64,000 nt of DNA. It comes from Candidatus Hermodarchaeota archaeon. GTDB taxonomy: Archaea > Asgardarchaeota > Hermodarchaeia > Hermodarchaeales > Hermodarchaeaceae. The notes beneath the pieces were generated by a model, which was not told the DNA's origin, made no database searches, and worked only from the letters and a program-made list of their open reading frames with translations. How positions within the stretch are numbered: the stretch's first letter is position 1; every line of letters begins with the position of its first letter. The stretch is from the NCBI GenBank assembly GCA_016839805.1, contig JAEOTO010000022.1, forward strand, positions 1 through 64,000, in the 5' to 3' direction. Made by a program: the position numbers and the translations under genes. Of the stretch, positions 23,035 to 32,952 are shown in pieces.

Positions 23035-23925
23035 TTACCCACCATGACGGTGGATTTCGTCCTCAAGACCACGAATCGCTGCCTTTAATCGAAGTCGTTC
23101 TTCAACGAATTCGTCGCCTGTAAGCTTTCCATCCCGGAATTTTTTATCTAAGGTTTTCATCTCAGAATTAAGATTCTTAATTCGCTGGCGCATCTGATCG
23201 ACGTAACTAACTACGCGTCCTTCTGCGTCAGCTTCGAGGTCAGCAGGAGTATAGGCGGCTTTAATTACCCCGTCATCGATTCGGAGAATCCGCTCTGTGG
23301 CTGCGGCGACGATGGGATTGTGAGTGACGAGAATGGTGGTTTTGTTATACTTCTGGTTGATATTAACCAAGAAATCAACTACTATCTGAGATGTTTCAGA
23401 GTCCAACTCACCCGTAGGTTCATCGGCTAGGATGATGGGTGGATCATTAGCTAACGCTGCGGCAATGGCTACACGCTGTTGTTCTCCACCACTGAGTTCA
23501 TCAGGTTTGTGCTTCGCCCGATCAGTCAATTGGACCGTCTCTAAGAGTTCATCGATGCGTTGCCGACGCTCTCCGCGTGGGACCTGATTCACAATCATGG
23601 GAAGTGCAATGTTTTCAGCAGCACTCAGAGTTGGCACCAGGTTAAGCGTTTGAAAGATATGACCAACGACACGTCGTCGAAACATTACTAGCTGTTTTCG
23701 GTCTAGGAAGGTTACATCAATATCGCCTACCATTGCTTCACCAGCTGTAGCACGATCTAACCCGCCAAGGATATTTAGCAACGTTGTTTTTCCAGACCCT
23801 GAGGGACCCATCACAGAAACCAATTCGCCCTCGCGAATACTCAAATTCAATCCACGCAGTGCACGTACTTCAACAGGACCCATACGGTAAACGCGAACTA
23901 AATCCTTGACTTCGATATATGACAT
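23035..23925 (-). CDS. ABC transporter ATP-binding protein (LolD/MacB type) with C-terminal helical extension
   Basis: [32 protein letters not shown]. Confidence 0.95.
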
Positions 23926-31415: not shown

Positions 31416-31434
31416 GAGTTCGAGGTGTGAGCCC

Positions 31435-32808
31435 GTGGTACTTTATGGAATCTGGCTCATTGATGCAAACAGTGGATTACTCCTCTCGCATGTCACTATA
31501 CCGGGGTTTACCTTTAACCCTGATCTCTTTTCAGGATTCATCGCTGCAAGCCACGATTTTGCACAAGAAACCTCTGGAGGCAAGCTTAGCACCATTGCCA
31601 TGGGGAATTTCAAACTCTTAATTCGGCGAGGACGAGTCCTCATGAAGGTTCTCGCCGTTGGTGCCCGCGATCCTGAAACCCGGTATGACCAATTTTTCAA
31701 AGATATTGAGGAGAAAGTAGATCCCGCTTTAGCACATCTACATCGTGAACCCAATGGGTTTAAAGCCGTCACTATCGAATTTCGCAAACAACTGATAGAA
31801 ATAATTACCAAAGAACTTAACCGCTTTGTCACAAGGAAAGCGCCATCTGATTTGTCAGATTTAACGATTTTACAAGAAGACGAAGCACGTACGCTCATAC
31901 AAGCCTTACTACAACGCCAAAGTGCTGAGCTAGTCCCCAAACTCGCTACCACTAAAATGGGGTATTCATATCCACTCGCATCCTCAATCACAGGACTTGA
32001 TGATGAAGCTGCCTTGCAATTACTCGAACACCTCGCGGATTATGGATTACTGCTTGCTGAAGTCACCGATTCATCACTGGCTTGTCCCCAATGTGATTCG
32101 TTGCATCTGCATCCCCACATACTCTGTCCTGGTTGTCAAACTCCTGCCCAACCAGTTGGGCTCTTCGAACACCTCCCATGTGGAACCATTAGCGTAAAAC
32201 TAGATAACGAACAGGAACTCTACTGTAACCGGTGTGGAACCCGAAACGGGGATGACTCTGAATTCCGGGTATTTCGGGGATACCAATGTCAACAATGCAA
32301 CTCTTTTTTCAAAAAACCCCAAATGGTCTTCACCTGCCATTCCTGCCATACCATTACTGAACCCGAAAACGCGAAAGTAAGGGTTTTAAAGAAATACGTT
32401 TTGAATCCCGCTCTCATCTCTGATCTCGAATTCATCCTAGCAAAACCAAAGAAACCATTACTACATCAAGCAAGCACAACAGAAATCATGAAAGAACCCC
32501 CACCGCTTGACCCGTCCATATCTGTCACAACAGAAACGATTCCTCAGATTGTCAGTCAATCTAATGCAGATGAATTTCTTGAACCCACAGTGCTTACTCC
32601 GGTACACATTGACCCTATCGAACCAGTTAACTCCCCAACAGAACCAATGGAGAAAATAGTCACCAGAGATGAAGCTCAACTGGTTCAAGAGCTTAACTCG
32701 CTTGAATCAGCGCTTCGCTCAGGGGCTATCACTGAAGCTGAGTACGATCGGAAATTCGTCCGAATTAAACTCCAACTCCGCCGAATCCGGTCACAAGAAA
32801 TCCTCTAA
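31435..32808 (+). CDS. Multidomain protein: longin-like + TackOD1-like multi-Zn + Pro-rich linker + C-terminal helical hairpin
   Basis: N-terminal IWLID..SGLLL...DLFSGFIAA..FAQE (Asgard longin pattern); GYSYP...CPQC..CPGC..EHLPCG..CNRC..CQQC..CHSC; C-terminal LESALRSGAITEAEY. Confidence 0.75.
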   Translation: MVLYGIWLIDANSGLLLSHVTIPGFTFNPDLFSGFIAASHDFAQETSGGKLSTIAMGNFKLLIRRGRVLMKVLAVGARDPETRYDQFFKDIEEKVDPALAHLHREPNGFKAVTIEFRKQLIEIITKELNRFVTRKAPSDLSDLTILQEDEARTLIQALLQRQSAELVPKLATTKMGYSYPLASSITGLDDEAALQLLEHLADYGLLLAEVTDSSLACPQCDSLHLHPHILCPGCQTPAQPVGLFEHLPCGTISVKLDNEQELYCNRCGTRNGDDSEFRVFRGYQCQQCNSFFKKPQMVFTCHSCHTITEPENAKVRVLKKYVLNPALISDLEFILAKPKKPLLHQASTTEIMKEPPPLDPSISVTTETIPQIVSQSNADEFLEPTVLTPVHIDPIEPVNSPTEPMEKIVTRDEAQLVQELNSLESALRSGAITEAEYDRKFVRIKLQLRRIRSQEIL

Positions 32809-32952
32809 AACTCCCTACTTTTTCAATCCTAGATCGAAGTTCCCTGGAAAAGACAACTTTCTACCATTAGTGGGATTAAAATAGAACCTCAAAGTTCCGC
32901 ATACACACTTTAACATACACTACAAGATCGAATACCATTAAGGTGAAAAAAA

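Follow-up and report, generated by a model that had tools for sequence, protein, structure and literature searches.

We analysed a stretch of 64,000 nucleotides from a Candidatus Hermodarchaeota archaeon (assembly GCA_016839805.1, contig JAEOTO010000022.1, positions 1 to 64,000; hereafter the window) and focused on one gene on its forward strand (31435-32808), which encodes 457 amino acids followed by a stop codon. The gene begins with GTG, and a Shine-Dalgarno-like GAGGTG read from the sequence lies 7 nt 5' of this start (31422-31427). GAGGTGTGAGCC also precedes the ortholog at locus L096, and the start M/V-V-L-Y is common to all 34 aligned relatives. The protein consists of an N-terminal domain of longin fold, a TackOD1 domain, a disordered linker and a C-terminal two-helix hairpin of the SHOCT class. 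It belongs to a real, conserved, Asgard-specific family of soluble four-part proteins, and we slightly favour the view that it acts as a signalling adaptor, with a longin platform in place of the receiver of TackOD1 response regulators.

Searching 5.8 billion clustered proteins, we recovered 50 homologs, mostly full length, with E-values from 1e-94 to 1e-274. All the named records among them come from Asgard metagenome-assembled genomes carrying Promethearchaeota, Odin-, Thor- or Hermodarchaeia labels, and the four-part layout is shared by the 34 relatives that we aligned (43-90% identity). The host genome comprises 2.3 Mb in 50 contigs and is 87% complete; in a survey of 121 Asgard species genomes, all but one of the other genomes of its genus (12 of 13) had full-length matches. 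Paralogs at L050, L099 (a tandem pair), L100 (a tandem pair) and L101 match the profiles of both the N-terminal domain and TackOD1 and, except for the second L099 gene, that of the C-terminal hairpin as well. This recurrence of the three-module design points to selection for the combination. Profile searches found the longin part absent from other Asgard TackOD1 proteins. No NCBIfam model matches the protein, a phmmer search of its whole length against PDB sequences returned nothing useful, and the supplements of PMC10936438 hold no mappable asCOG entry for the family. In the literature that we searched, we found no longin combined with TackOD1 or with zinc ribbons. Among the orthologs at L043 (G060:C2:73870-75246) and L048 (G110:C9:22960-24343), one has an in-frame TAA and the other is split into two frames; pseudogenes, sequencing errors or recoding could account for these.

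The N-terminal domain (residues 1-133; 31435-31833) was assigned from an AlphaFold2 model based on the alignment of 34 sequences and from Foldseek and VIA-align comparisons. These residues are modelled at a predicted local distance difference test score (pLDDT) of about 83-89, with strands at residues 5-10, 16-21, 53-55, 59-65 and 69-76 and helices at 29-47, 81-100 and 114-131. The resulting order, strand-strand-helix-strand-strand-strand-helix-helix with a five-stranded sheet, is that of longins, for which the published topology rule is an absent N-terminal helix and an extra C-terminal helix (PMC10933270). All the PDB entries that Foldseek returned at probability 1.0 are longin or roadblock proteins, including AP sigma and mu, TRAPP Bet5/Trs23, Sec22b, Mon1-Ccz1, Fuzzy-Inturned, BLOC-3 and LAMTOR. 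In an exhaustive VIA-align comparison, the longin domains of Fuzzy, Mon1/Ccz1, VAMP7 and Sec22 superposed at Z 11-13.4 and a root-mean-square deviation (rmsd) of 2.5-3.3 over 118-128 residues, and 8yqg_B, the longin part of a Roadblock-Longin protein from a Lokiarchaeon, reached Z 12.4. Roadblock domains scored lower (Z 9-11) and covered residues 1-100 only. On the modelled structure, the N-terminal domain is thus confirmed as a longin at the level of fold. The top rows of a Foldseek search with the full model, which ran over 260-460 columns to tri-longin RabGEFs, were set aside as stretched longin matches (template modelling score about 0.2, rmsd >13).

At the level of sequence, residues 1-145 have no match in Pfam or NCBIfam, and Pfam longin and roadblock models give none even at E<=10; one paralog has an N-terminal domain with a sub-threshold match to Pfam Robl_LC7 (E 6.5e-4). 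An exhaustive phmmer search with the same residues against 1.8 billion representatives found 17 proteins, most of which continue into TackOD1, two into a winged helix (HTH_47), while a few are short. The nearest Atlas clusters to the domain are Asgard proteins of about 140 residues, one with Fuz_longin_1, and these are noted as a lead only.

The middle of the protein is a TackOD1 domain (residues 146-322; 31870-32400). It matches Pfam PF18551 at E 2.8e-24 and 86.1 bits, against a cut-off of 32, and covers positions 5-187 of the 188 in the profile; a whole-genome scan finds the same place. Six CxxC or HxxC knuckles (C217/C220, C231/C234, H246/C249, C264/C267, C285/C288 and C301/C304) provide twelve Cys/His ligands that are invariant in 32 sequences, including paralogs at 24-30% identity. 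Galperin et al. (2018) described a TackOD1 signature of eleven conserved cysteines, in five CxxC and one HxxC motifs, and called the function of the domain obscure (PMC5847659); residues 217-304 match this signature in full. Folded alone, TackOD1 is modelled at pLDDT 91.7, and the model allows it to be divided into a helical winged-helix core that includes the GYSYP motif (residues 138-205; 31846-32049), a beta-rich zinc module inserted in the wing and carrying the six knuckles (residues 206-323; 32050-32403) and a closing helix (residues 324-338; 32404-32448) seen at residues 325-336, or 188-199 of the TackOD1-only model. Three zinc sites are predicted within the module, and we infer that it binds zinc.

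The top 50 VIA-align rows for the TackOD1 model are nearly all winged helix-turn-helix (wHTH) domains at Z 7.4-9.0, mostly regulators of the ArsR, MarR and HxlR types such as CadC and CzrA, with TubR and the N-terminal winged helix of Rio2 also among them. In these alignments some 80-87 residues are spread over model residues 1 to 203, so the zinc insert is skipped. We take TackOD1, as modelled, to be a winged helix that has a beta module of about 100 residues in its wing, entered and left through putative wing strands at 206-216 and 314-323; because the Z values are middling, this reading is a model and not proof. The core is acidic (4 Lys and Arg, 11 Asp and Glu), and the would-be recognition helix, read from the sequence, opens with a conserved acidic LDDE. 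Both features argue against direct reading of DNA.

TackOD1 is followed by a linker (residues 339-405; 32449-32649) that is disordered in the model (pLDDT 27-34) and rich in proline (18%), threonine (12%) and glutamate (10%). Its length and sequence vary among orthologs, and it is the only poorly conserved part of the protein (column identity 0.30, compared with 0.68-0.77 where the protein is folded). No conserved P(T/S)AP-type motif was seen in the linker when the ortholog alignment was inspected by eye. The C-terminal hairpin (residues 406-457; 32650-32805) is formed by helices at 406-429 and 434-456 (pLDDT about 90; column identity 0.68), the second of which is basic.

We scanned the 34 tails one by one against Pfam, and all the matches lie below the curated cut-offs. 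GvpG was matched by 34/34 tails (best 5e-6), SHOCT by 31/34 (best 1.6e-5), the SHOCT-like DUF1707 by 14/34 and VPS28 (PF03997) by 7/34, the last at E 0.0023-0.08 over profile positions 6-43 and with no Vps28 C-domain. The SHOCT match (PF09851; core at residues 419-440, 32689-32754) scores 16.8-20.9 bits, under the 27-bit cut-off, and in a whole-genome scan with this model at E<=1 the present open reading frame (ORF) was the sole match. By hhalign, the tail matches a set of 26 Asgard SHOCT domains at 95% probability (P 3.6e-8) and a strict set, the 12 above the Pfam cut-off, at 94.6% (P 7e-8). The score was reached by 0 of 120 column shuffles, and unrelated helical regions gave at most 1.9%. 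The hairpin profile found nothing useful among PDB sequences and, in an hmmsearch of all six-frame ORFs of the genome, only itself. The best non-self matches, insignificant at E about 1, fall near the C-termini of two proteins of about 295 residues (window 23035-23925, minus strand, and contig C6:42207-43091), which may carry SHOCT-like tails. One proposal is that bihelical SHOCT-like domains bring a variety of other domains to the membrane's inner face (PMC11237479).

We also compared the hairpin with two ESCRT-I elements, using 30 Asgard steadiness boxes (alignment A4) and 30 Vps28 N-domains collected from 121 genomes of the phylum. By hhalign, the tail matches the steadiness box at 64% (P 6.5e-5, 42 columns) and the Vps28 N-domain at 29% (P 5.7e-4), and neither score was reached by any of 200 column shuffles. 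The Asgard steadiness box in turn matches SHOCT at 96.6% (P 6.8e-10; 84% and P 7e-6 with the strict set), a score reached by 0 of 120 shuffles, and the Vps28 N-domain at 96% (P 4.2e-9). Across the phylum, Pfam SHOCT matches at E of about 0.004-0.005, the same range as in the present tails, occur directly beside Vps28 in three genomes, the position of the steadiness-box gene in other ESCRT clusters. The resemblance between hairpin and steadiness box can thus be traced to the Asgard steadiness box being itself SHOCT-like, and ESCRT membership is not needed to explain it. On these profile comparisons, we regard the tail as a SHOCT-class module that is closer to ordinary SHOCT domains than to the steadiness box. 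A link between SHOCT and the steadiness box was not found in the literature searched.

The gene lies downstream of genes for a creatininase, S-adenosylhomocysteine (AdoHcy) hydrolase, a YhfC protease and Fpg, and upstream of genes for 3-hydroxyacyl-CoA dehydrogenase (3HCDH), enoyl-CoA hydratase (ECH), thiolase and a DUF35 protein. The gene order is the same around orthologs at 59%, 48% and 45% identity; since it extends in both directions over at least 12 genes, we read it as synteny of the lineage. A k-mer comparison of four divergent orthologs found no shared motif upstream of the gene. Upstream of the 3HCDH gene, at window positions 32876-32908, we noted a TATA-like TTAAAATA followed by GAACCTCAAAGTTC (GAAC-N6-GTTC) and CGCATACACAC; this element is conserved in the orthologous loci L096 and L097 and, as far as its sequence can tell, might serve a beta-oxidation-like operon as promoter and operator.

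Elsewhere, TackOD1 genes often occur in tandem pairs (L099:5959-8772; L100:4539-7269; L101:385-2818), which in L101 lie 4 nt apart. A KaiC/RecA-like ATPase (PF06745) follows the pair in L099 and L100, and an Arf/Ras GTPase is found about 2.4 kb downstream of the L099 pair. In addition, a 304-residue TackOD1 protein is encoded about 43 kb beyond the present gene, outside the window (L103:7357-8825; contig C10:75356-76824), tail-to-tail with a Ras-family GTPase gene some 5 bp away. The pair is kept in 4/4 genomes of the sister genus and not in two other families, and the N-terminal domain of this paralog has, by eye, a strand-strand-helix-strand-strand-strand look.

The anatomy agrees with much of the original prediction, which had been made from the DNA sequence. 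It had named a longin at the N-terminus from the motifs SGLLL (residues 13-17), DLFSGFIAA (30-38) and FAQE (42-45), all present as quoted, and the model, the Foldseek probability of 1.0 and the Z values of 11-13.4 bear this out. GYSYP (residues 176-180) and the six Cys/His pairs (217-304) are likewise in place, the middle region that it called TackOD1-like scores 86.1 bits against a cut-off of 32, and the Pro/Thr/Glu linker at 339-405 does lead into a terminal hairpin of two helices (LNSLES...IKLQ, 420-447). It had also placed the longin where a receiver domain would stand, which is a fair description: TackOD1 follows REC in published response regulators of TACK archaea and bacteria (PMC5847659), and this form is also represented by an Atlas cluster. 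The present protein has no Response_reg match at E<=10.

TackOD1 is found in further combinations. In the Atlas clusters it stands after REC (in 100% of the members of one cluster), before GGDEF, or together with an Mrr_cat nuclease domain. In other Asgard families we observed TackOD1 N-terminal to a complete Lrp/AsnC regulator, with an HTH_AsnC-type domain and an AsnC ligand domain (L051:1039-2154 and L053:1021-2175, both on the minus strand). TackOD1 thus behaves as a portable signalling module and not as a fixed output, and since the Lrp/AsnC partner brings its own helix-turn-helix (HTH), TackOD1 need not be the part that binds DNA.

In the adaptor that we slightly favour, the longin domain would be a regulated input platform that probably forms dimers and binds a partner, for instance a small GTPase. 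The role of TackOD1 would be that of a zinc-stabilised module for partner binding or sensing that relays the state, and the SHOCT hairpin, free to move on the flexible linker, would cluster the protein or keep it close to the membrane. Besides the fold and family assignments, the portability of TackOD1, the recurrence of the three-module design, the membrane role proposed for SHOCT-like domains and the Ras-family neighbour of the 304-residue paralog speak for this proposal. Several points weigh against it. In the window, as around three divergent orthologs, the present gene has no GTPase, roadblock or ESCRT gene beside it. The 304-residue paralog beside the Ras-family gene has an N-terminal domain without profile similarity to the present longin (hhalign probability 0.1%), and its adjacency to Ras is conserved only within one taxonomic family. 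The winged-helix match of TackOD1 is middling (Z up to 9.0), Foldseek found no PDB match to the TackOD1-only model at E<=0.001, and any function of TackOD1 or of SHOCT is so far putative (PMC5847659).

The same features could be read as those of a local transcription factor, in which TackOD1 would use its winged helix to bind DNA and control the beta-oxidation-like operon downstream, while the longin acts as sensor or dimeriser. Most output domains of response regulators bind DNA. TackOD1 is an output domain of response regulators (PMC5847659), its top structural matches are repressors of the ArsR/MarR type, and an Mrr_cat nuclease domain is fused to it in some proteins. The gene also sits directly upstream of 3HCDH-ECH-thiolase-DUF35 in orthologs down to 45-59% identity. 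A conserved GAAC-N6-GTTC repeat follows the TATA-like box before the operon, and DUF2089 proteins likewise join a SHOCT-like domain to a Zn ribbon and an HTH (PMC11237479). However, the acidic core and the LDDE at the start of the would-be recognition helix fit poorly with DNA binding, and fusion to an Lrp/AsnC regulator with its own HTH suggests that TackOD1 is not the DNA reader. Moreover, paralogs lie in unrelated contexts, and gene order conserved over at least 12 genes on both sides looks like synteny and not like a pair of regulator and target. On balance we consider a local transcription factor unlikely. The zinc module of TackOD1, with its eleven cysteines, could also be an input, a metal or redox sensor that changes fold on oxidation or metal loss, with longin and SHOCT as outputs. 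The twelve Cys/His ligands of TackOD1 are invariant, it stands N-terminal to GGDEF and Lrp/AsnC outputs elsewhere, the usual place of a sensor, and its best structural matches include the metal-sensing ArsR/SmtB repressors CadC, CzrA and SmtB. Zinc ribbons of the TackOD1 kind, however, are usually structural. This was also suggested for TackOD1 itself, which follows REC in response regulators and so occupies an output's place (PMC5847659), and there are no redox or metal genes among the neighbours in the window. Such a sensor seems very improbable to us.

The original prediction went further and proposed an ESCRT-I-type adaptor with a hairpin like the steadiness box or Vps28. The resemblance is real and is explained by the shared SHOCT-like module; the specific ESCRT-I identity is not supported, since SHOCT is the best match, Pfam Vps23_core (PF09454) is matched by 0/34 tails at E<=1 and no ESCRT genes are nearby. 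What we found is a generic SHOCT match with no confident ESCRT-I interface, and the protein is most probably not a core ESCRT-I subunit. It might nevertheless be an accessory one, docking by a steadiness-box-class hairpin on the headpiece formed by the UEV-steadiness-box protein and Vps28, and bringing longin and TackOD1 to ESCRT sites. Besides the matches above shuffles to the steadiness box (64%) and Vps28 N-domain (29%) and the sub-threshold Pfam VPS28 matches in 7/34 members, the hairpin superposes on the helical hairpin of CdvA (Z 8.9, rmsd 1.9), which HHpred has linked to the steadiness box (PMC10936438). Makarova et al. (2024) described many patchily distributed multidomain Asgard proteins with steadiness boxes, among them proteins with a winged helix, a steadiness box and three Zn ribbons, and proposed that they dock on ESCRT-I (PMC10936438); the original prediction thus has a counterpart in print. 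The genome does have an ESCRT-I/II/Vps4 cluster, on contig 47, with a UEV and steadiness-box protein (its own steadiness box at L004:1211-1417), Vps28, Vps22-like, Vps25-like and Vps4 genes. Against this, SHOCT fits the tail much better (95%, P 4e-8 to 7e-8), and the Z of 8.9 for the helical hairpin is within background. A whole-genome Vps23_core scan at E<=1 misses the present ORF while it finds two true steadiness-box proteins, on contigs C47 and C29, and the hairpin profile retrieves neither a steadiness-box protein nor Vps28 from the genome ORFs at E<=50. The gene is not beside ESCRT genes in four orthologous contexts, and the ESCRT cluster is on another contig. Three Pfam-detected ESCRT proteins are already available (UEV-steadiness-box, Vps28 and Zn-ribbon-PH-steadiness-box), and longin-like or TackOD1 relatives also occur in family f6, none of whose 17 genomes has a Vps28 match; across families, Vps28 and the present family are not co-distributed. 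A three-chain complex prediction (own steadiness box, Vps28 N-domain and hairpin) gave 0.01-0.02, with a mark of 0.32, and counts neither way. An accessory role in ESCRT-I is in our judgement quite doubtful, and we attach similarly little credence to its wider form, in which a working steadiness-box-class hairpin docks longin-TackOD1 on the ESCRT-I headpiece or on other steadiness-box proteins, couples longin and GTPase signalling to ESCRT recruitment and, more broadly, reflects a derivation of the steadiness box from prokaryotic SHOCT.

Longins are one of the "eukaryotic signature" folds that are expanded in Asgard archaea, and the present family, which joins the longin fold to a prokaryotic signalling domain at the usual position of the phospho-receiver, offers a system that can be expressed to learn what Asgard longins sense or bind. 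The structural reading of TackOD1 as a winged helix with a three-zinc insert, which depends on the model, is new. The profile similarity between the steadiness box and SHOCT suggests a prokaryotic source for the hairpins of the ESCRT-I headpiece, the origin of which was called hard to pinpoint in the most recent survey (PMC10936438).

Compared with known systems, the protein shares its N-terminal fold and helix order with eukaryotic and Asgard longins (Fuzzy, Mon1/Ccz1, TRAPP, VAMP7/Sec22 and 8yqg), although it is only 6-15% identical in sequence to the longin and roadblock chains that it matches. The TackOD1 core superposes on ArsR/SmtB and MarR regulators over about 80-87 residues at Z up to 9.0, but differs from them by the zinc insert of about 100 residues and by a surface that its sequence predicts to be acidic, and the present protein has no match to these sequence families. 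With SHOCT, the tail has in common its C-terminal position, two helices, the motif L..L...G.IT..EY and an hhalign probability of 95%, whereas its second helix is longer and more basic and Pfam GvpG scores slightly better. ESCRT-I steadiness-box proteins likewise have a C-terminal hairpin with a shared motif, and their order of globular domain, linker and hairpin is also that of the present protein, which however is without a Vps23_core match, UEV, PH domain, coiled-coil stalk or ESCRT neighbourhood. The host itself encodes a protein of that kind, the 508-residue product of contig C29:23849-25372 (L006:1453-2976, minus strand). It combines zinc ribbons at the N-terminus with a PH domain (bPH_3) and, at the C-terminus, a hairpin like that of Vps23_core; the Znr_PH_CC_SB family, put forward as a component of Asgard ESCRT-I, is built from the same domains (PMC10936438). 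The REC-TackOD1 response regulators possess the same TackOD1 domain with the full Cys/His signature; relative to them, a longin replaces the receiver, and TackOD1 is followed by a long linker, disordered in the model, and by a tail of the SHOCT class.

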